The notes: generated by a model not told the origin, from the letters alone. A stretch of 20,000 nt of DNA from an uncultured virus (IMG/VR IMGVR_UViG_3300035126_001036) (IMGVR_UViG_3300035126_001036:118810-138809); one strand, 5' to 3'; positions 3,118-17,385 are shown, numbered from the stretch's first letter. Translations and numbers: made by a program.

Positions 3118-4797
3118 ATGGCAAAGTTATTTGGTTTCTCAATTAATGATCGCACCGAATTAACCCCAAGTACAATCTCCCCCGTTCCTCAAAATGCCGA
3201 GGACGGGGCAGATTATTATCTAACGTCTGGGTTTTTTGGCTCTTATGTTGATATTGAGGGTGTTTATAGAAACGAATTTGAATTAATCAAACGTTATCGA
3301 GAAATGGCACTTCACCCAGAGGTGGACGAGGCCATTGAAGATATTGTAAATGAGGCAATTGTTTCTGATACTTATGACAGTCCGGTTCAGATTGAATTGT
3401 CTAATCTAAATGCTAGTGATGGTATTAAGACAAAAATCAGAGAGGAATTTAAACACGTTCTAAAACTTCTTGATTTTGATAAAAAATGTCACGAGATTTA
3501 TAGAAATTGGTATGTTGATGGTAGACTTTATTACCATAAGGTTATTGATCTTAAAAAACCAGAACTAGGAATTCAAGAACTTCGGTATATTGACAGCCTG
3601 AAGATGAGGTATATCCGAAAGGCCAAGCAAGATAAGAGTAATAATAGAATTCTTCAACACGATCCTAGAAATAGTGATCCAATGACTTATAAGTTCCCCG
3701 AAATGGAGGAATATTTTCTTTATAGTCCAAGACCATCTTATCCAAATTCTGGAACCAATATTTCTTCAGCAAGAAATGATAATGATGGTGAAATTAAACT
3801 AGCCAAAGATAGTGTAACTTTTTGTACTTCTGGTCTGATTGATCGCAATAAAAATATTACTCTTTCTTATCTCAATAAGGCAATTAAATCTCTTAATCAA
3901 CTTAGAATGATTGAGGATAGTATTGTAATTTATCGAATGGTTAGAGGGACCGAGAGAAGAATTTTCTATATTGATGTGGGTAATATGCCCAAAGTCAAGG
4001 CCGAGCAGTATCTCAGAGAAACAATGATGAGATACCGAAATAAGATGAATTATAATATTGAAACCGGAGAAGTTTCAAACGACAGAAGATTCCAGAGTCT
4101 TATGGATGATTATTGGCTTCCAAGACGAGAAGGTGGAAGAGGAACTGAGGTAACTACTCTCCCTGGATCACAGAATCTTGGAGAACTAACTGACCTTAAT
4201 TATTTCCAGAGAAAACTTTATAAGTCATTGAATGTTCCGTCCTCAAGAATTGATGGTGAAAGTGGTTTTAACCTAGGTAGGTCTTCAGAAATTCTCAGAG
4301 ACGAAGTTAAGTTTTCAAAGTTTGTGGGGAGACTTAGAAAACGATTCTCTAGGTTGTTTGTGGACCTTCTAAGAACTCAATTGATTCTTAAGAATATTAT
4401 TACTCCAGAAGATTGGGCCGAGATGAGTGAGCATATTCAATTTGATTTCCTTTATGATAATCATTTTGCAGAACTCAAAGAATCTGAGCTTCTCACCGAA
4501 AGACTGAATATGGTCTCAATGGCCGAGCCTTATATTGGAAGATTTTATTCCCAGGATTATGTTAGAAGGAAAGTTCTTAGACAGACTGATGAAGAAATTG
4601 TTGAACAAGATGCTCTGATTCAAAAGGAAATTGAGACCGGAGTTATCCCAGATCCTTCTATTCCTATTGATCCAGAAACCGGGCAGCCTCTCGCAGAACC
4701 ACCACCAGAGGAAATTGAAGGTGATATGGGTAAGGTTCCAACAGAACCAGAAGTCAAAACAAAGGCAGTAGAAATGCCAAAAGGTGGCGACATCTAA
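3118..4797 (+). CDS. gp20: Portal vertex protein
   Basis: 559 aa; MAKLFGFSI, YREMALHPEVD, RNWYVDGR, ERRIFYIDVGN, DYWLPRREGGRGTE, SEILRDEVKFSKFV motifs. Confidence 0.98.
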   Translation: MAKLFGFSINDRTELTPSTISPVPQNAEDGADYYLTSGFFGSYVDIEGVYRNEFELIKRYREMALHPEVDEAIEDIVNEAIVSDTYDSPVQIELSNLNASDGIKTKIREEFKHVLKLLDFDKKCHEIYRNWYVDGRLYYHKVIDLKKPELGIQELRYIDSLKMRYIRKAKQDKSNNRILQHDPRNSDPMTYKFPEMEEYFLYSPRPSYPNSGTNISSARNDNDGEIKLAKDSVTFCTSGLIDRNKNITLSYLNKAIKSLNQLRMIEDSIVIYRMVRGTERRIFYIDVGNMPKVKAEQYLRETMMRYRNKMNYNIETGEVSNDRRFQSLMDDYWLPRREGGRGTEVTTLPGSQNLGELTDLNYFQRKLYKSLNVPSSRIDGESGFNLGRSSEILRDEVKFSKFVGRLRKRFSRLFVDLLRTQLILKNIITPEDWAEMSEHIQFDFLYDNHFAELKESELLTERLNMVSMAEPYIGRFYSQDYVRRKVLRQTDEEIVEQDALIQKEIETGVIPDPSIPIDPETGQPLAEPPPEEIEGDMGKVPTEPEVKTKAVEMPKGGDI

Positions 4798-6923: not shown

Positions 6924-7259
6924 ATGTCGCTTCTTGATAAAAAATCCTCAGTAAAATTAAATTCTGGACAACTTGTTCAGGGAGTTGCTGTAGTTGATAG
7001 TGACGGAAATCAAGTTACTTCATTTGGGGGTAGTGGAGGTGGTTCTACAACTGTCGGGGTAGTAACAGTTTCTAATACCGTTTCTAATCCAGTTCCGGTT
7101 ATTTCTGGACTAAATATTCCAAACCACAATAGAGTATCCCTTGCATATTCGGGATCTAATTTAGTTGGTGTTGCATACAGTTTTAATAATGTCGGTGTTG
7201 CTACTTTAACTCTTTCTTATGATGGGAGTAATAACCTTATTTCGGTCGTTAGGAGTTGA
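6924..7259 (+). CDS. Small beta-rich putative virion/fibre-associated protein
   Basis: 111 aa; C-terminal IPNHNRVSLAYSGSNL...VATLTLSYDGSNNLISVVRS resembles small proteins found next to phage fibre genes; backbone-like AT-rich DNA. Confidence 0.6.
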   Translation: MSLLDKKSSVKLNSGQLVQGVAVVDSDGNQVTSFGGSGGGSTTVGVVTVSNTVSNPVPVISGLNIPNHNRVSLAYSGSNLVGVAYSFNNVGVATLTLSYDGSNNLISVVRS

Positions 7260-7264
7260 TTTTT

Positions 7265-8323
7265 ATGCAATATAAGTTCAACCCATTTACTGGAACCCTG
7301 GATGCGGCTGGCGGCGGCAACCCTGCTGGAAACAGTGGCGACATTCAGCTAAACCTGGATGGCGCCTTCGGTGCTGTTTCCGGTTTTCGCTGGATCACTG
7401 GTGAATTGCAGGTTCCGGGTGACATCAAACTTGATGACGGCGGCGGCTTCACTACAACAATTCAGTGTGTAACGCCGACCAGGAACAACACCATCTCATT
7501 CCCTGATCAGACGGGGACTGTGGCCTTGGTGGGCGGCTCTACTGGGCAGCTTGTCTACAACCTGAATGGTTCGTATCAAGGCGTCAGCACGATGACGTTT
7601 GATGGCACGTCAGTTACTCTGGCTGGCCGTTTGATCAACAGCTATACAAGTCTGGCTAGTGCTCCAGCCAAACATTTCACCGGCTCGTGGTTCACGGGCG
7701 GCACCAGCACAACCACCAAGCCGCACTTCCTGATCGAGCCTGCGGGCACTACGTCTACCGCCTGGAGCGCGTCTGGCACAGGCCTGGGGGTGAATGCGCC
7801 GAGCGGGTTTGCGGGGAACCTGCTGGACCTGCAGATGAATGGAGTAACTACTGTCTATGCCACCGCCGCTGGTTTGCTGGGCGCTACTACTGCAAACATT
7901 GGATCTACTATTATAAGCAGTACTGGCGTTACGCTAGTAAATACCAGAAACATAACCTTTACAGGAAGTCTTGTCGGCACAGTCAACTGGGGCGATCTTT
8001 TTATTGCTCGTGACGCCGCTAACACCCTCGCCCAACGCAACGACGCCAACGCCCAGACCAGCCGCATCTACAACACCTTCACCAGCGCCACAAACTTCGA
8101 GCGGGCAAAAATCGAATGGGCCAGCAACATCCTGCGCATCGGCACCGAGAAAGGCTCCGCAGGCGGCACAGCCCGCGACATGGAGCTACAGACCGATGGC
8201 ACAACACGAATCACGGTGAAGGCTAACGGGGCCATCCTGTTCTCAGGTATTCCCACCTCTAACCCGAACGTCGCGGGCCAGTTGTGGAACGACGGCGGAA
8301 CCCTGAAAATCTCCGCCGGTTAA
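7265..8323 (+). CDS. Fibre-like protein, chimeric (AT-rich start fused to a GC-rich body)
   Basis: Likely start ATG 7265 (352 aa). N-terminal YKFNPFTGTLD motif; G/T/S/A-rich; ISFPDQTGTVAL shaft-like motif; C-terminal IPTSNPNVAGQLWNDGGTLKIS motif typical of phage fibre proteins. Confidence 0.65.
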   Translation: MQYKFNPFTGTLDAAGGGNPAGNSGDIQLNLDGAFGAVSGFRWITGELQVPGDIKLDDGGGFTTTIQCVTPTRNNTISFPDQTGTVALVGGSTGQLVYNLNGSYQGVSTMTFDGTSVTLAGRLINSYTSLASAPAKHFTGSWFTGGTSTTTKPHFLIEPAGTTSTAWSASGTGLGVNAPSGFAGNLLDLQMNGVTTVYATAAGLLGATTANIGSTIISSTGVTLVNTRNITFTGSLVGTVNWGDLFIARDAANTLAQRNDANAQTSRIYNTFTSATNFERAKIEWASNILRIGTEKGSAGGTARDMELQTDGTTRITVKANGAILFSGIPTSNPNVAGQLWNDGGTLKISAG

Positions 8324-8328
8324 TCACC

Positions 8329-8913
8329 ATGCCCCTTTCCTCTCTCACGATCACCCTCACCGACACCCGCCTAATTGATGGCTGGGTAGAGGCCGCCAAT
8401 CGTAACGGCACCACGCCTGAGCAGCTTGCGCTGGAGTTTCTACAGCATCAAGGCCGAGTCTATGCCGACCTGAATCGCATCGGGTTGATCACCAGCTCTG
8501 GATTCATTCGCCGGTTCTCAGCCGCTGAGTACGGAGCGATTCTTGCCGCTGCCGAGCAGTCCCCGCATGTGGCCGCCCTGGTAGATGAGCTGACCAACTC
8601 TCCCACAGTGGCGCTTGACGACCCCCGCCTTGAGCCTGGCCTGCAGGCATTGGCAGCCGCTGGCCTGATCGCTGCCGAACGCATCCCGGTGATTTTGGCG
8701 TATGCGCGTCCTGAGCCCGGAGGCCAGCGCCCTACCAATCCGCAGCGGTTTGACGTGTTCACAGCCCCAGACGGTAGCCAGTGGATGTGGGATCAGCCCC
8801 GCGCCGCTGACGGCGCCTACGCCCAGGACGACCCTGCCACCGAGGCCGTGGAATCGGCTATGCGCTGGGTGCGCGTCACAGAGGACGACGAAGATGGAGG
8901 TGGCGACGGATGA
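8329..8913 (+). CDS. Putative fibre assembly chaperone-like protein with an extra C-terminal module
   Basis: Likely start ATG 8329, 5 nt after the fibre stop (194 aa). Helical FIRRFSAAEYGAI...VALDDPRLEPGLQALAAAGLIAAERIPVIL resembles small proteins encoded downstream of fibres; acidic tail QPRAADGAYAQDDPATEAVE. Confidence 0.45.
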   Translation: MPLSSLTITLTDTRLIDGWVEAANRNGTTPEQLALEFLQHQGRVYADLNRIGLITSSGFIRRFSAAEYGAILAAAEQSPHVAALVDELTNSPTVALDDPRLEPGLQALAAAGLIAAERIPVILAYARPEPGGQRPTNPQRFDVFTAPDGSQWMWDQPRAADGAYAQDDPATEAVESAMRWVRVTEDDEDGGGDG

Positions 8914-9680
8914 CGTTGATATGGCGCCCAGGCTACATAACAACATTTGCCGATCCTGATGTTCAGTCGTATTTGACAAGGGTAGAGGAGGCCGATAATC
9001 AGAGATTGGAATACCCCGTAGCGGTGGCGATTGATGAGTTTATTAGGGGCTGCAAGGCTGATGGGATCTGGAACGCGATCAAAGCCTCCTGCATCATGGC
9101 CGGCGCCCGCACACTGGCCGGTGCGTTGGTGCCGCTGGTGGGTACTGCGCCGACGAACTTTAACTTTGTGGCGGGGGATTACAACCGGAAGACGGGGCTG
9201 GTGGGGAATGGGAGCAATAAGTATTTGGATAGCAATAGGAATAATAATGCGGATCCGCAGGATAGTAAACATGTTGCTGCCTATGTCGTTTCAATTGGCA
9301 GCGGTGGTGGGCGACCGTTTGTTGCGACATCAGCCGGAACAGGTCGGACATTTATCAATGATCTCGTTCAAGTTACGGTAAACAGATCGGCATTCAACGT
9401 TGCTACTGCCGTTGTTGCCCCGTGCCTTGCCGGGGCGTCTCGCAATTCATCTGCAACATTTGACCTTCGGAGAAACAACCAAACTGTTTCTTTTACAGGG
9501 GTAACTTCGGAAACCCCATTGAACCAAAATCTTTTCGTATACAGGCGCCAAGGAGCAACTATCACTGAATACTCGGACGCCCGCATCTCATTCTACAGCA
9601 TAGGCGAATCCCTGGACCTCGCCCTGCTCGACGCCCGCATCACCACCCTAATCAACAGATTCGCAGTCGTAATACCATGA
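8910..9680 (+). CDS. Cassette paralog 1, putative receptor-binding/lectin-like virion protein
   Basis: 256 aa; GGAGG SD at 8896-8900, ATGA overlap; conserved GCKADGIWxAIKASCI..GARTL.GALVPLV and YSIGESLDL.LLDAR blocks shared with the next two genes. Function inferred. Confidence 0.7.
   Translation: MTLIWRPGYITTFADPDVQSYLTRVEEADNQRLEYPVAVAIDEFIRGCKADGIWNAIKASCIMAGARTLAGALVPLVGTAPTNFNFVAGDYNRKTGLVGNGSNKYLDSNRNNNADPQDSKHVAAYVVSIGSGGGRPFVATSAGTGRTFINDLVQVTVNRSAFNVATAVVAPCLAGASRNSSATFDLRRNNQTVSFTGVTSETPLNQNLFVYRRQGATITEYSDARISFYSIGESLDLALLDARITTLINRFAVVIP
9075..9172 (+). repeat. Upstream conserved arm, copy 1 (direct repeat of 9860-9957)
   Basis: 98-nt alignment to 9860-9957 with only two mismatches (C/T at 9104 and 9158), both synonymous. 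Confidence 0.95.
9576..9680 (+). repeat. Downstream conserved arm, copy 1 (homologous to 10367-10471 and 11217-11321)
   Basis: Shared GGCGAATCCCTRGACCTCG...CTCGACGCCCGC...CCATGA core in all three paralogs. Confidence 0.9.
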
Positions 9681-10471
9681 GCCCAATTTACACTCCAGGA
9701 AAGTTAATACTTCGCCGGACGTATATTGGCCTGGACGACCCTGACGCTGCGGCATACATCACAGCGGTCGAGATTGCAGATGGCCAGCCCTTGGAGATTG
9801 GGGTTCAGGTGGCAATTCATTCGTTTGTAAAAGGCTGCAAGGCGGATGGCATCTGGCCAGCGATCAAAGCCTCCTGCATCATGGCCGGTGCCCGCACACT
9901 GGCCGGTGCGTTGGTGCCGCTGGTGGGTACTGCGCCGACGAATTTTAACTTTGTGGCTGGTGATTACAACAGAAAGACGGGGCTTGTGGGGAATGGGACG
10001 ACGAAGTATCTGGACAGCGGCAGGAATAACAACGCTGATCCGCAAGATAGCAAGCATCTGGCAGTATTCAAATCAAGCAACGCAGGCAAGCTGGGGGGCC
10101 TCTTAGGCACTGCGTTGAACGCAAATGGTACATCATGGATTTTTGAAGGTTTTAGTGGAGGCAACGATACCTATCGAGTCAATACAAACCCTTCAATCAT
10201 ACTCTCCCTAGGATCTTATCCTGACACGGGATTTATAGGCATTAACCGTTCGTCGTCGAGTAACTCAACGCGAAGGTATTCAGGGGCAACAATCTCTGAT
10301 GCCAGCACCTCTCAAGCGCCATTAGCCGCAAATGCTCTGGTGTTTAGTGCCGCAGGCCAGCCAACCGACGCCCGCCTCGCCTACTACTCCATCGGCGAAT
10401 CCCTAGACCTCGCCCTCCTCGACGCCCGCGTGACCGCCCTGATCAACACGTTCGGAGCTGTTATCCCATGA
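9677..10471 (+). CDS. Cassette paralog 2, putative receptor-binding/lectin-like virion protein
   Basis: 264 aa; ATGA overlap with paralog 1; same conserved blocks, divergent central region. Confidence 0.7.
   Translation: MSPIYTPGKLILRRTYIGLDDPDAAAYITAVEIADGQPLEIGVQVAIHSFVKGCKADGIWPAIKASCIMAGARTLAGALVPLVGTAPTNFNFVAGDYNRKTGLVGNGTTKYLDSGRNNNADPQDSKHLAVFKSSNAGKLGGLLGTALNANGTSWIFEGFSGGNDTYRVNTNPSIILSLGSYPDTGFIGINRSSSSNSTRRYSGATISDASTSQAPLAANALVFSAAGQPTDARLAYYSIGESLDLALLDARVTALINTFGAVIP
9860..9957 (+). repeat. Upstream conserved arm, copy 2
   Basis: 96/98 identical to 9075-9172; 9845-9880 is also identical (36 nt) to 10668-10703 in paralog 3. Confidence 0.95.
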
Positions 10472-10521
10472 AACACCCATTTTCCACTGCCACTACGAAG
10501 TGCGCGGAGGTGTTGCTATGA
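10468..10521 (+). CDS. 17-codon mini-ORF linking paralogs 2 and 3
   Basis: MKHPFSTATTKCAEVLL*; starts in the ATGA at the paralog 2 stop and ends in the ATGA at the paralog 3 start. Confidence 0.35.
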   Translation: MKHPFSTATTKCAEVLL

Positions 10522-11321
10522 GCTGGATTATTACGTCGTCGTTCTATGGCTACATCGCGGATGTTGATGCTAGGGACTACTTGGCAAGGGTTCACAACGC
10601 AGAAGGCCAAACACTGGAACCTGCTGTGGCTCTTGCCATCGAGGCGTTTGTGGTGGGCTGTAAGGCTGATGGCATCTGGCCAGCGATCAAAGCCTCCTGC
10701 ATCCTTGCCGGTGCCCGCACGCTGAACGGTGCGCTGGTGCCGCTGGTAAAACAGGCGGCAGACGGTACTCCTCAGAGGCTTGGGACAGAAGGAGGCTGGA
10801 ACTATCTCCGAAAAACTGGCTTAAAGGCAAATGGGACTGACAACAGAATTGACTCTGGTCGAAATAACAGCACCGATCTGCGGAATAATAGTCACAATGC
10901 TGTGTACATAACGGAAGCGCAAACACTAAATGCTTCGATAATGGGAGCCGACTCTACCGGCTTGGGGGCGAACAATCTAGGATGGTTTAACTCTTCTGGA
11001 GTCGCGTTGTTCGCTCGGAATAGATCAACCGCTATTCAAAATCAAATTGCAGGGTCCACAAGCTCAGCGCCGATCAATTTATTCGGTACAAGCCGGAATA
11101 GTGCTACAGGCTATACTGTAAGGGCATCAGGCATTGGTTACCCGCTTACGCATACATCAGCAACCCCTTCACCTGGAAAGGTGTATGTGTTTGCCCGTGA
11201 GAATGCTGGATCCAGCGACCCACGCCTCGCCTTCTACAGCATAGGCGAATCCCTAGACCTCGTCCTACTCGACGCCCGCGTCACCACCCTAGTCAATGCG
11301 TTCGGAGCTGTTATCCCATGA
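10518..11321 (+). CDS. Cassette paralog 3, putative receptor-binding/lectin-like virion protein
   Basis: True start likely ATG 10518 (MSWIIT..., 267 aa), preceded by GGAGGT SD at 10506-10511; same conserved arms. Confidence 0.7.
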   Translation: MSWIITSSFYGYIADVDARDYLARVHNAEGQTLEPAVALAIEAFVVGCKADGIWPAIKASCILAGARTLNGALVPLVKQAADGTPQRLGTEGGWNYLRKTGLKANGTDNRIDSGRNNSTDLRNNSHNAVYITEAQTLNASIMGADSTGLGANNLGWFNSSGVALFARNRSTAIQNQIAGSTSSAPINLFGTSRNSATGYTVRASGIGYPLTHTSATPSPGKVYVFARENAGSSDPRLAFYSIGESLDLVLLDARVTTLVNAFGAVIP

Positions 11322-11398
11322 CCTGGACTGATGTTGCGATGATGGCCGCAATGATGCTCCCGGCCAGCGTTGCCGTCGCAGTGCTACTGGAGCCCTGA
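11318..11398 (+). CDS. Tiny hydrophobic peptide (single TM-like helix)
   Basis: Hand translation, 26 aa: MTWTDVAMMAAMMLPASVAVAVLLEP*; ATGA overlap with paralog 3. Confidence 0.45.
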   Translation: MTWTDVAMMAAMMLPASVAVAVLLEP

Positions 11399-11401
11399 CC
11401 C

Positions 11402-11545
11402 ATGCCCCACTTAATCCGCTTCACCGCCGCCGTTACACTGGTGGCCGGCCTGCTGGGCTGGCTGCTGAGTGCCGTGCCCCTACCGCTGGCGCTGGGCGTC
11501 GCGGTCGTCTGCGCTTGGCTGGTGTTTGACCTGGTGCAGCCGTAG
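11402..11545 (+). CDS. Small two-TM membrane protein
   Basis: Hand translation, 47 aa: MPHLIRFTAAVTLVAGLLGWLLSAVPLPLALGVAVVCAWLVFDLVQP*; two hydrophobic stretches split by PLP; island-like codon usage. Confidence 0.6.
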   Translation: MPHLIRFTAAVTLVAGLLGWLLSAVPLPLALGVAVVCAWLVFDLVQP

Positions 11546-11617
11546 GGGGCTGAGCTACAGCCCTGCGGCCATACTCATGAATATGGCGCTGGTTGAAATG
11601 CCTGAATTATAAACGAC

Positions 11618-15683: not shown

Positions 15684-15889
15684 ATGACTAAAGTTTTTAC
15701 AAAAGAAACGAGCAGAAGAAGCAAGCAGTAAATGTTGGCTTATTATTGCTCCAGATGGAACTGAAGAAATTATTGTAAATCTTTCAAAGTATTGTAGAGA
15801 ACGAGAATTAAATAATAGTTCTATGAGATTAGTTGCTTATGGTAAACAGGACGATTATAAAGGCTATAGAGTAAAAAAAACTAGACTAA
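15684..15889 (+). pseudogene. Frameshifted remnant of a homing-endonuclease-type DNA-binding domain (NUMOD/IENR-like)
   Basis: Frame from 15688 reads QKKRAEEASSKCWLIIAPDGTEEIIVNLSKYCRERELNNSSMRLVAYGKQDDYKGYRVKK, like the C-terminal modules of phage HNH/GIY-YIG endonucleases. ATG 15684 and the natural-looking stop (KKLD-TAA 15887-15889) are each out of frame by one base. Confidence 0.6.
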
Positions 15890-17385
15890 TTTATAGGGCC
15901 GAAAGGTCCCAACCCATAAGTAAGACTCCCACAGTCCCAAATTTTCTCAAATCCCATTTCTCTGGCCTTCTCATACTCTGAACAATCATACGCCCCTATC
16001 AATTTCTTTTGAAACTTCATTCGATTGTGCCGCTCTAAACAATTCTTATCGACATAAAAATAAGAAGGCCCATTAACATGAATTAAATTGAAACCGTTTT
16101 TCTTATAAACATCACCATTAGAAATTCTTCGATCAGCATAACTTACAATAGAACCACCATAAGAATCAATAAAATTCTTCAACATCTTAGAAAATCCACC
16201 AACAACAGTAATTCCACCGAGACAGGCAAACCTAGAAAGTTCCCACTGATAATTTCGATTAAATCTAGAATTACAAAAAGTCATTACACAAACTAGTTTA
16301 TTCTCATAAAAAAGACCCAGTTTAATTTTACTTTTGTCTTCTCTTTGAATATGATTTTGGTTTAAAAAAGAATTCTTTAATGAAACGTCGATTTCGTTAA
16401 CAATACATTTTCGTGCATAAAGTCTCTTATTTAGACCCAATTTACTTTTGATAATATTTTGAACGATTTCTTTTTTAAATTTCCACTCATCACTATAAAA
16501 CTGTAATAGTTGTATTCCATTTTTACTACACTCTATTGTTTTCTGTAAATGATAAGAAGGACCTTTAATTAAACATTCTTTTTCTTCCCAAGGACGATAA
16601 AGATGAGAGTATAACCCATTATACTCAATTGCCAGATTATCTTCAGGTAAATAAAGATCTAATTCTTTCCCATTAAGAACAGAACGATTAGATTGTTGAA
16701 TTTCTTTATTGTAGATTGTTTTCAACCAATTATAAATCTCATTTTCTTCTTTACTAATCTTTTTGATTTTTCTTTCATAAGAATTTGAACTTCTGGTTTC
16801 AATTCCATGAACCTGCATCCATCTAGAAACGGTTCCTTTTGTGGTATTTAATTGTTCGGCAACTTCTTCTACTTTAAGACCCGAACTATAAAGAGCAGAT
16901 AGTTCTTCCTTGGACTGAAGAATTCGATTGGCATTTAGATTTCTTTGTCTTGCGTCAAAAAGATTATCTAGGCCATATTCTTTAAGTTTGTTTCGGATCG
17001 TGACCGGACTTGTTTTTAGATCACTTGCAATCTGGTCTACTGATTTTTGAGCAACAATTCTTTCATTATATAGAGTCTCTTTTGTAATGATTGGAGATTT
17101 TACTTTTAAAGAGTGGTCATTATTATAAAATCTTCTAAATCCTTGTTCTGGATAGGTATAGTTAAGGTTGGCTGCTAGGCCACAACCACATTCACATAAA
17201 GGAACTTTTTTGATGTCATTCAGAACAACATAGGCTCGGTGCTTGTTTTGAATCTTTTCATAATGTTTATCCATAAAGAAAGTTTGATTTCTTAATTCAG
17301 AAACAAATTCTTTGTTCTTTACAAGCGACGCAAAGAGACTTTTATCACTCCATGAGGCTTTAACCAATTCTTTGAAATTGTCCAT
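15886..17385 (-). CDS. Hef-like putative homing endonuclease: Cys cluster, HTH repeats, Vsr/DUF559-like nuclease and Mom-like GNAT domain
   Basis: 499 aa; CECGCG; two HTH-like segments (SVDQIASDLKTSPVTIRNKL; KVEEVAEQLNTTKGTVSRWM); ELDLYLPEDNLAIEYNGLYSH nuclease motif; C-terminal YARKC...FLNQNHIQ...WELSRFA...VVGGFSKM...IVSYADRR...GDVYKKNGF...KIWDCG. Confidence 0.75.
   Translation of the reverse strand: MDNFKELVKASWSDKSLFASLVKNKEFVSELRNQTFFMDKHYEKIQNKHRAYVVLNDIKKVPLCECGCGLAANLNYTYPEQGFRRFYNNDHSLKVKSPIITKETLYNERIVAQKSVDQIASDLKTSPVTIRNKLKEYGLDNLFDARQRNLNANRILQSKEELSALYSSGLKVEEVAEQLNTTKGTVSRWMQVHGIETRSSNSYERKIKKISKEENEIYNWLKTIYNKEIQQSNRSVLNGKELDLYLPEDNLAIEYNGLYSHLYRPWEEKECLIKGPSYHLQKTIECSKNGIQLLQFYSDEWKFKKEIVQNIIKSKLGLNKRLYARKCIVNEIDVSLKNSFLNQNHIQREDKSKIKLGLFYENKLVCVMTFCNSRFNRNYQWELSRFACLGGITVVGGFSKMLKNFIDSYGGSIVSYADRRISNGDVYKKNGFNLIHVNGPSYFYVDKNCLERHNRMKFQKKLIGAYDCSEYEKAREMGFEKIWDCGSLTYGLGPFGPIN

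Follow-up and report, generated by a model that had tools for sequence, protein, structure and literature searches.

Phage host range evolves largely through swaps of receptor-binding segments, and in the tail-fibre genes of T-even phages adhesin specificity is reportedly exchanged when conserved motifs on either side of hypervariable segments recombine. Here we analyse a stretch of DNA from an uncultured virus (IMG/VR IMGVR_UViG_3300035126_001036, positions 118810-138809; its 20,000 nucleotides (nt) are referred to below as the window), in which a GC-rich island carries a fibre-like gene and three tandem paralogs (P1, P2 and P3). The plan of each of these variable genes is best explained as a conserved arm, an AT-rich unalignable core and a second conserved arm, and the third codon positions turn from G-rich ahead of the core to C-rich past it. 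The locus resembles T-even fibres in its conserved flanks, unalignable segments and mosaics, in its T4-type phage setting and its probable role in host recognition, with breakpoints here found in the flanks; it differs in that small genes of predicted lectin fold stand separately in a tandem array, a module spread across myo-, sipho- and podoviruses, and to our knowledge a mirrored synonymous G/C asymmetry of the flanks has not been described for T-even fibres. Chi-type oriented recombination signals, and the GT-rich pairing sequences that RecA-family proteins prefer, offer another comparison: the arms are likewise G/T-rich and would be oriented relative to a DNA end, whereas, unlike Chi, the four sets of flanks share no motif.

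Three other systems resemble the locus in part. Alteromonas phages, as the abstract of one report describes them, share a host-recognition module among distant phage families (PMC10579305), much as the present tail-fibre module appears to move between unrelated families; that work concerns module sharing and chaperone caps, and its abstract mentions no strand-composition signature. The vls cassettes of Borrelia combine high GC with strong GC skew in an AT-rich genome, features thought to serve gene conversion (PMC11499132). GC-raised cassettes in an AT-rich genome and segmental gene conversion are common to both systems; however, the vls skew is uniform, about 0.52 on the coding strand over whole cassettes, whereas here the sign changes within each gene, and the vls system has silent donors with one expression site (PMC11499132), whereas here all copies are intact, P1 to P3 being complete open reading frames (ORFs) with their own starts and P3 having its own GGAGGT and ATG. 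At human meiotic hotspots, resected flanks carry a mutation asymmetry of opposite sign on each side, attributed to 3' single-stranded tails, with C and A lost on the exposed strand (PMC7615360). The likeness lies in the opposite strand asymmetry around a centre and in the polarity of the G-rich strand, which matches resected 3' tails; what is described there is the spectrum of de novo mutations across some 2 kb of eukaryotic DNA, whereas the present pattern is a standing synonymous composition over 60-165 nt in a phage, with a gain of G and little gain of T. In the limited collection of full-text literature searched, no description of a mirrored skew signature in phage genes was found.

The skew was assessed by permuting synonymous codons within each gene, which keeps both the protein and the gene's codon usage, with the peak of the cumulative difference between third-position G and third-position C (G3-C3) as the statistic. 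The G-then-C order gave z = 4.08 in the fibre gene, 5.21 in P1, 3.0 in P2 and 2.68 in P3, and none of the 13 other window genes was significant; orf209, an island gene with high third-position GC (GC3 0.68) and no variable core, had no flip (z = 0.24). Among the 121 ORFs of the 138.8-kb genome, a G-then-C z of at least 3 occurs only in the fibre gene, P1 and P2, and three AT-rich genes have a weak flip in the opposite, C-then-G, direction. In related loci, no + strand ORF outside the cassette families with GC3 of at least 0.45 reached z >= 3 in either direction (0/91), as against 47/87 in the paralog family, 5/9 in a further family, C, and 10/43 in the fibre family. The G-then-C flip is confirmed as real and specific to these genes after amino-acid control. 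The features concerned are as follows (coordinates in the window, strand in brackets; aa, amino acids).

7256..8323 (+): fibre-like gene, 355 aa, first in the island; phrog_18251, no Pfam match
7736..7855 (+): fibre 5' arm, G3-rich, codons 161-200; third positions in the window G 18, C 10
7856..8005 (+): fibre variable core, codons 201-250; low conservation and low GC3 in 35 representatives
8006..8155 (+): fibre 3' arm, C3-rich and G3-poor, codons 251-300, peak at 251-280; third positions C 35, G 6
8284..8913 (+): orf209, GC-rich gene without a variable core, internal control; phrog_25252, GC3 0.68
8910..9680 (+): Paralog 1 (P1), 256 aa; phrog_17104 family
~9120-9239 (+): P1 5' arm; G3-C3 +5 to +10 per 20 codons
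~9540-9677 (+): P1 3' arm; G3-C3 -9 to -12 per 20 codons
9677..10471 (+): Paralog 2 (P2), 264 aa, reference of the family alignment; phrog_17104 family
9887..10051 (+): P2 5' arm, codons 71-125; G3 high and C3 low in the family
10052..10366 (+): P2 variable core, codons 126-230; nt identity and GC3 low in the family
10367..10468 (+): P2 3' arm, codons 231-264; C3 high and G3 low in the family
10485..10520 (+): inter-cassette linker, CACTGCCACTA, GGAGGT, then the ATG of the MSWIIT start; sequence motif, alignment A2
10500..11321 (+): Paralog 3 (P3), 273 aa as listed; phrog_17104 family; the true start is likely the ATG at 10518 (MSWIIT...)
~10710-10799 (+): P3 5' arm, weak; G3-C3 +5/+6
~11190-11318 (+): P3 3' arm; G3-C3 -10 to -15

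The original prediction, drawn from the window by eye, had begun with eight counts of G and C in 60-nt windows, all of which we reproduce exactly. These windows are hand-picked extremes (G minus C per 60 nt has a standard deviation of 5.9 across the window and of 7.4 within the GC-rich island, and spans -23 to +20), and GC-rich phage ORFs often have comparable raw patches: of 180 'other' ORFs in related loci, 61 have a 20-codon G3-C3 of at least +8, 91 have one of -10 or lower and 32 have both, with G before C in only 18 of the 32. Raw counts alone are therefore unexceptional. The accompanying statement that the skew is partly written in synonymous codons is borne out by its survival of the within-gene permutation in the fibre gene and the three paralogs; the C-rich side is nearly all third-position (in P2, for example, +3, -4 and -18 per 20 codons), and about half of the G-rich side is. 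The codon lists offered for P1 are likewise correct (upstream GAT 4 and GAC 0, AAT 6 and AAC 3, GGG 4; downstream GAC 3 and GAT 0, CGC 3), and the G-rich side of P3 is as weak as had been said (third positions G 15, C 16). Since the arms of the three paralogs are homologous (72-85% nt identity), the paralogs amount to one observation and the fibre gene to an independent one.

A scan of viral contigs returned 409 relatives of P2, and 77 loci yielded 130 homologous ORFs, reduced to 82 representatives at less than 80% amino-acid identity; the fibre family was represented by 35 sequences. The predicted flip across the variable region is conserved in these diverged homologues. In the codon alignment of the paralog family, codons 71-90 and 101-110 have G3 of 0.43-0.49 and C3 of 0.13-0.15, and codons 231-260 have C3 of 0.84, 0.60 and 0.57 with G3 of 0.01-0.13; the core between has GC3 of about 0.37 and a median pairwise nt identity of 0.37, against 0.72-0.73 in the arms, and amino-acid conservation is 0.8-0.9 in the arms and 0.2-0.4 in the core. 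At individual sites of the 5' arm the choice is close to exclusive (ACG 47 and ACC 1, CCG 66 and CCC 1, GGG 55 and GGC 9), and exact codons are kept in the 3' arm (CGC 73/81, TAC 77/82, GGC 70/82, GAA 77 versus GAG 4), whereas other conserved codons of the gene are saturated (for example codon 31: GTA 22, GTG 22, GTT 19, GTC 16). The paralog flip is present in phages with GC3 from 0.35 to 0.70. In the fibre family, where C3 is about 0.45 by default, the 20 codons ahead of the core (181-200) switch to G3 of 0.45/0.35 and C3 of 0.15/0.22, fourfold degenerate sites of the 5' arm having G 0.55 and C 0.12; the core codons 201-250 have amino-acid conservation of 0.09-0.28 and GC3 of 0.28-0.49, and the 30 codons past the core (251-280) have C3 of 0.49-0.72 and G3 of 0.04-0.13.

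Downstream of the paralog arrays in related loci lie more cassette genes, which form three further families, B, C and D; family C matches Laminin_G_3 (E = 1.5e-15), and families B and D share phrog_10356. Five families with the same fourfold polarity can be counted, in keeping with the claim that the pattern recurs in unrelated families, and because B and D are related they make about four independent families rather than five. The companion claim that the skew flanks every variable core stands in that the flip is found in all five, and is weakened in that independent families are few and the 5' G patch is weak in two. Across the five families the composition by site class, with twofold sites divided into pyrimidine-ending (Y) and purine-ending (R), is as follows.

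5' arm: fourfold G 0.29-0.55, C 0.12-0.19; T at Y sites 0.52-0.62; G at R sites 0.53-0.80
Core: fourfold G 0.15-0.18, C 0.19-0.24; T at Y sites 0.57-0.61; G at R sites 0.37-0.45
3' arm: fourfold G 0.08-0.11, C 0.42-0.63; T at Y sites 0.12-0.32; G at R sites 0.16-0.35

The twofold sites had no part in seeing the pattern and serve as a separate check. They agree with it: in the 3' arms Y sites lean towards C and R sites towards A, G being scarcer than in the cores, and the 5' arms favour G at R sites, with no enrichment of C at Y sites (T is as in the cores). This agreement points to an enrichment of G on one strand of each arm, not to a general enrichment of GC3 nor to a single set of 'optimal codons'. 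As a description, the predicted geometry holds: G is plentiful on whichever strand has its 3' end turned towards the core, and the second commonest fourfold base is T in the 5' arm and, for the + strand of the 3' arm, A. The arms were placed partly by eye. When they were set by rule, blind 30-codon flanks of the least conserved run misplaced the arms of the paralogs and of family C, which have moderately conserved central islands; a rule taking the nearest conserved block worked for the paralogs and families C and D, yielded no 3' block in the fibre family and did not work for B. With rule-based arms the excess of C over G on the 3' side is robust (paralogs 82/82, C 46/49, D 36/45, fibre 31/33, B 19/23), and the 5' G side is strong in the paralogs (80/82) and in C (40/49).

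The arms are also where recombination is seen. How closely two genes agree in one segment hardly predicts how closely they agree in another (Spearman 0.09 between the N2 segment and the core, 0.04 between the core and the C-terminal (C) arm), and individual pairs are plainly mosaic: among the related loci (numbered L001-L097), the genes of L014 and L054 agree at 90-95% and 87% in the arms and at 45% in the core, whereas P1 of the window and L054 agree at 96% in the core, 70% in N1 (the first 65 codons) and 79% in the C arm. Further mosaic pairs are L026/L047 and L030/L005, and in L011/L012 the N domain and core are identical and the C arm is at 86%. The breakpoints fall near codons 50-60, 125-130 and 230-240, the borders of the arms. 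Between P2 and its orthologue in L002 one core codon differs and nine C-arm codons differ; at eight of the nine, L002 has the codon of its own upstream paralog, which marks a gene-conversion tract copying the arm of a neighbouring paralog. The prediction that the skew would coincide with recombination breakpoints is thus upheld by mosaics that break at arm borders and by a conversion tract within the C arm. Sequence comparison in this way shows the arms to be zones of homologous recombination and gene conversion, through which cores, and sometimes whole arms, are exchanged between phages and between neighbouring paralogs.

We tentatively favour, at slightly short of an even call, the view that ties the mirrored synonymous skew to recombination as a strand asymmetry, arising through either selection or biased conversion. 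The + strand is G-rich 5' of the core and the - strand 3' of it, and in both cases the 3' end of that strand is directed at the core; the strand would be a 3' tail, or an invading or priming end, if the intermediate starts at, or stalls against, the heterologous core. In one version the arms would be selected for G(T)-rich invading strands, GT-rich DNA being preferred by RecA and Rad51. In another, conversion would be strand-biased, as it would be if G/G and C/C mismatches (the latter are poorly repaired) were mended unequally in a heteroduplex of fixed polarity; this would lead to a swap of G for C with opposite sign on each side; frequent conversion would also leave the arms GC3-rich while the non-recombining cores are AT3-rich. 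A more ambitious form, which we think unlikely though worth stating, makes the arms evolved landing pads in which synonymous sites encode polarity, the 3' invading or priming strand being kept G(T)-rich and C-poor for efficient directional exchange across myo-, sipho- and podoviruses.

Several points weigh against the recombination-linked view. The polarity is read from base composition rather than from breaks, tails or exchange events. Tandem arrays are periodic, so the pattern could equally have the gene junctions as its centre, running from C-rich to G-rich; the fibre gene alone, with both patches inside one gene at a distance of about 50 codons, favours a core-centred arrangement. With one common assumption, a simple mismatch-repair model worked by hand gives the reverse sign, the direction depending on the pathway; the rarity of C at G-consensus sites is also expected from neutral decay of an ancestral G; and no oriented motif is common to the four flank sets. 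With rule-based arms the 5' G patch is weak in family D (26 versus 14 of 45), and for B the rule failed; the fibre 5' patch is local, present in 27/35 for the last 30 codons and neutral (18 versus 17 of 35) over the block 141-195. Because C3 already exceeds G3 by default in conserved parts of the module (fibre default C 0.40, G 0.27), the 3' arm is an exaggerated default and the 5' G patch is the real anomaly. Representatives within one family, finally, are not phylogenetically independent.

Among the alternatives, selection acting on RNA or translation has in our estimate a small but appreciable chance; G-ending codons ahead of the core and G-free, C/A-ending ones past it would tune how fast translation runs, how the lectin domain folds as it is made, how accessible the mRNA is or how the next cassette is coupled, with recombination incidental. 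The pattern follows the coding strand and conserved protein blocks; in four families the 3' arm ends up no more than 30-40 codons from the stop, just ahead of a conserved linker that carries a strong GGAGGT and the following start; residues 70-84 of the structural model, a low-confidence linker, fall under the paralog G patch; and RNA that is free of G and rich in C and A cannot fold on itself. However, the fibre 3' arm lies 75 codons from its gene's end with no junction near, RNAalifold over the C arm and junction finds 0 consensus pairs in 35 sequences, and no one set of optimal codons would serve, given that the arms of a single gene oppose GCG to GCC, GGG to GGC, ACG to ACC and AGG/CGG to CGC; the pattern is moreover the same in phages across the GC3 range of 0.35-0.70. 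Alternatively the skew might have no cause of its own, each arm descending from one recent ancestor with a chance skew and spreading by recombination. Homogenisation of arms by conversion would suit such an origin, as would the frequency of raw G3/C3 patches in GC-rich ORFs and the derived bases, which run A > T >> C at G-consensus sites and T > A >> G at C-consensus sites, like ordinary substitution spectra. We nevertheless consider it rather improbable, given that the same polarity is found in about four independent families whose arms have no common sequence, that 0/91 other GC-rich ORFs have an amino-acid-controlled flip, that other conserved codons (codon 31) are saturated at fourfold sites and arm sites are not, and that R-site G in the 3' arm is below core level in all five families.

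Besides selection for GT-rich invading ends, the original prediction had itself proposed two explanations, a deamination footprint and loose pairing of the arms. By the former of these two, repeated exposure of 3' tails as single-stranded DNA would deaminate C, and more slowly A, leaving the strand rich in G and T, with the mitochondrial heavy strand as an analogy. The geometry fits, the presumed exposed strand of the 3' arm is poorer in C and A and richer in G, and mirrored C>N and A>N asymmetry on resected strands is described for human hotspots (PMC7615360). The opposite-sign strand asymmetry stands; the expected gain of T from C does not. In the paralog 5' arm, relative to conserved default regions, C falls from 0.28 to 0.13 and G rises from 0.29 to 0.46, with T flat (0.28 to 0.26), and in the fibre family T even falls (0.22 to 0.15); Y-site T in the 5' arms is no higher than in the cores (0.52-0.62 versus 0.57-0.61). 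Arm GC3 exceeds core GC3, the reverse of net deamination, the patches span only 60-165 nt, and we know of no usual bacterial single-stranded DNA signature consisting of C-to-G changes; as a pure mutational footprint this is, in our judgement, decidedly improbable. Pairing of G-rich with C-rich arms, as RNA or single-stranded DNA, so as to loop out the core, is the least credible of the explanations and very nearly dismissed. The arm compositions are complementary (G/T-rich against C/A-rich), and the mean arm-arm duplex of -67.7 kcal/mol is somewhat stronger than the -57 to -62 of control segment pairs; however, there is no inverted repeat between the arms, and in 40 of the 82 representatives RNAduplex energies equal those of codon-position-preserving shuffles (mean z = 0.1, 0/40 below -2).

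The case is one of strong, family-wide constraint on synonymous sites, of defined strand polarity and placed where mosaic breakpoints and conversion tracts fall. If selected or driven by conversion, such a skew would provide a sequence-only finder of exchangeable cassettes and their borders in metagenomes, would report the polarity of recombination intermediates in uncultured phages, and would suggest testable design rules for arms. Were the landing-pad form true, mirrored third-position skew would be a general sequence-only marker of host-range cassettes exchanged by recombination and of the polarity of the intermediate; were the cause translational instead, it would be an unusually sharp, position-specific choice of codons.

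The surroundings of the island place it in a phage of known type. The window is a structural block with Pfam matches to sheath, tube, portal, prohead protease, scaffold, gp23, UvsY and UvsW, and the source phage is a T4-like cyanomyovirus, with a genome record of 138.8 kb at 37% GC. The island (about 7300-11600) has 55-65% GC, with every gene on the + strand in the order fibre-like gene, orf209, P1-P2-P3 and two small hydrophobic ORFs, and none of its genes has a Pfam match, whereas T4-like genes recognised by Pfam lie on both sides of it. On one side lie genes for virion structure, among them the portal (3118-4797), with more structural ORFs as far as 7259; on the other lies DUF7243/gp21. The island is best explained as a foreign-looking host-recognition module made up of a fibre gene, an accessory gene and three tandem lectin-fold paralogs. 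Megablast of the island against isolated phages gave two short arm matches only. Homologues of the paralogs occur in S-CBWM1, KBS-S-2A, S-CBS4, S-SRP02 and S-CRM01, cyanophages of three morphotypes (myo-, sipho- and podoviruses), and in many related loci homologues of the fibre gene sit upstream of paralog arrays. The same module is found in high-GC phages (flanking ORFs with GC3 of 0.7-0.9), and its presence both there and in a 37% GC genome makes it appear to travel between phages of very different composition.

The predicted fold of P2 (predicted local distance difference test, pLDDT, 75.9) comprises a helical hairpin, a beta-sandwich and a C-terminal helix. Against the PDB its top match is a tailspike chain of cyanopodophage Pan3, with a template-modelling (TM) score of only 0.38, followed by ConA-like, CBM40 and LamG domains; all these matches have probability 1.0, with TM of only 0.31-0.49. 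The GC-rich DNA continues past P3 through two hydrophobic ORFs at 11318-11398 and 11402-11545 (26 and 47 aa), the first overlapping the P3 stop, which are possibly membrane peptides of the module.

Other sources of variable cores and of local skew were considered and rejected. For a diversity-generating retroelement, no RVT_1 match was found in the 138.8-kb record (estimated to be 56% complete) nor in the window, and there is no pair of template and variable repeats, the cores differing by indels and being unalignable. For site-specific inversion or a shufflon, only four weak inverted pairs were found (24-28 nt, 71-79% complementary), none bracketing a core. Mosaic donors of differing codon usage are an unlikely source, the flip being local (20-55 codons) and recurring in unrelated families. 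Canonical G-quadruplex motifs are rare (4/82 and 13/82), a further difference from vls, and runs of G are enriched, at 4.1 per paralog 5' arm. No conserved RNA structure was found over the C arm and junction (0 pairs in 35 of the 82 representatives), and scans for promoters and terminators gave nothing above shuffles. As to overlapping genes, every alternative frame is interrupted by stops in most representatives; those most often open are free of stops in 29/82 (5' arm) and 32/82 (3' arm). Long antisense ORFs at 8817-9272 and 9704-10057 (- strand; 151 and 117 aa) cover the G-rich arms of P1 and P2 exactly and use a fully overlapping codon frame; as they are not conserved (stop-free in 29/82), they are read as by-products of the avoidance of TTA, CTA and TCA codons.

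Nor is there a shared Chi-like motif, no 6- or 7-mer being frequent in all four flank sets. The octamer GCTGGTGG, the Chi of E. coli and possibly not that of the cyanobacterial host, is present in 32/82 paralog 5' arms, where it follows from the P-L-V-G codons; it is found in 0/82 paralog 3' arms (other strand), 0/35 fibre 5' arms and 1/35 fibre 3' arms. The 138.8-kb genome has four + strand copies of GCTGGTGG, of which three, at 9134, 9197 and 9919 (genome 127943, 128006 and 128728), belong to the 5' arms of P1 and P2.

The linker that precedes P3 recurs elsewhere. Its motif CACTGCCACTA has 25 distinct occurrences in 25/97 loci and none on the other strand, and 22 of the 25 have ATGAGYTGG within the next 70 nt; the order is CACTGCCACTA, GGAGGT and ATGAGCTGG (M-S-W). 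Since the start MSW(I/V)IT is common to genes of the unrelated families P3, B, C and D, the linker may serve whole-gene cassettes as a common signal for crossover or expression. The cassette families that follow the paralogs number at least three, with proteins of 230-290 aa in loci L009, L019, L021, L035 and others, and in L046 a glycine-rich ORF is among the genes after the paralogs. Away from the island, a 499-aa AT-rich gene at 15886-17385 (- strand), between gp23 and the uvsY side, has weak helix-turn-helix and weak Mom-family matches and could be an inserted mobile or regulatory gene; its third positions drift mildly from C to G (z = 3.4).

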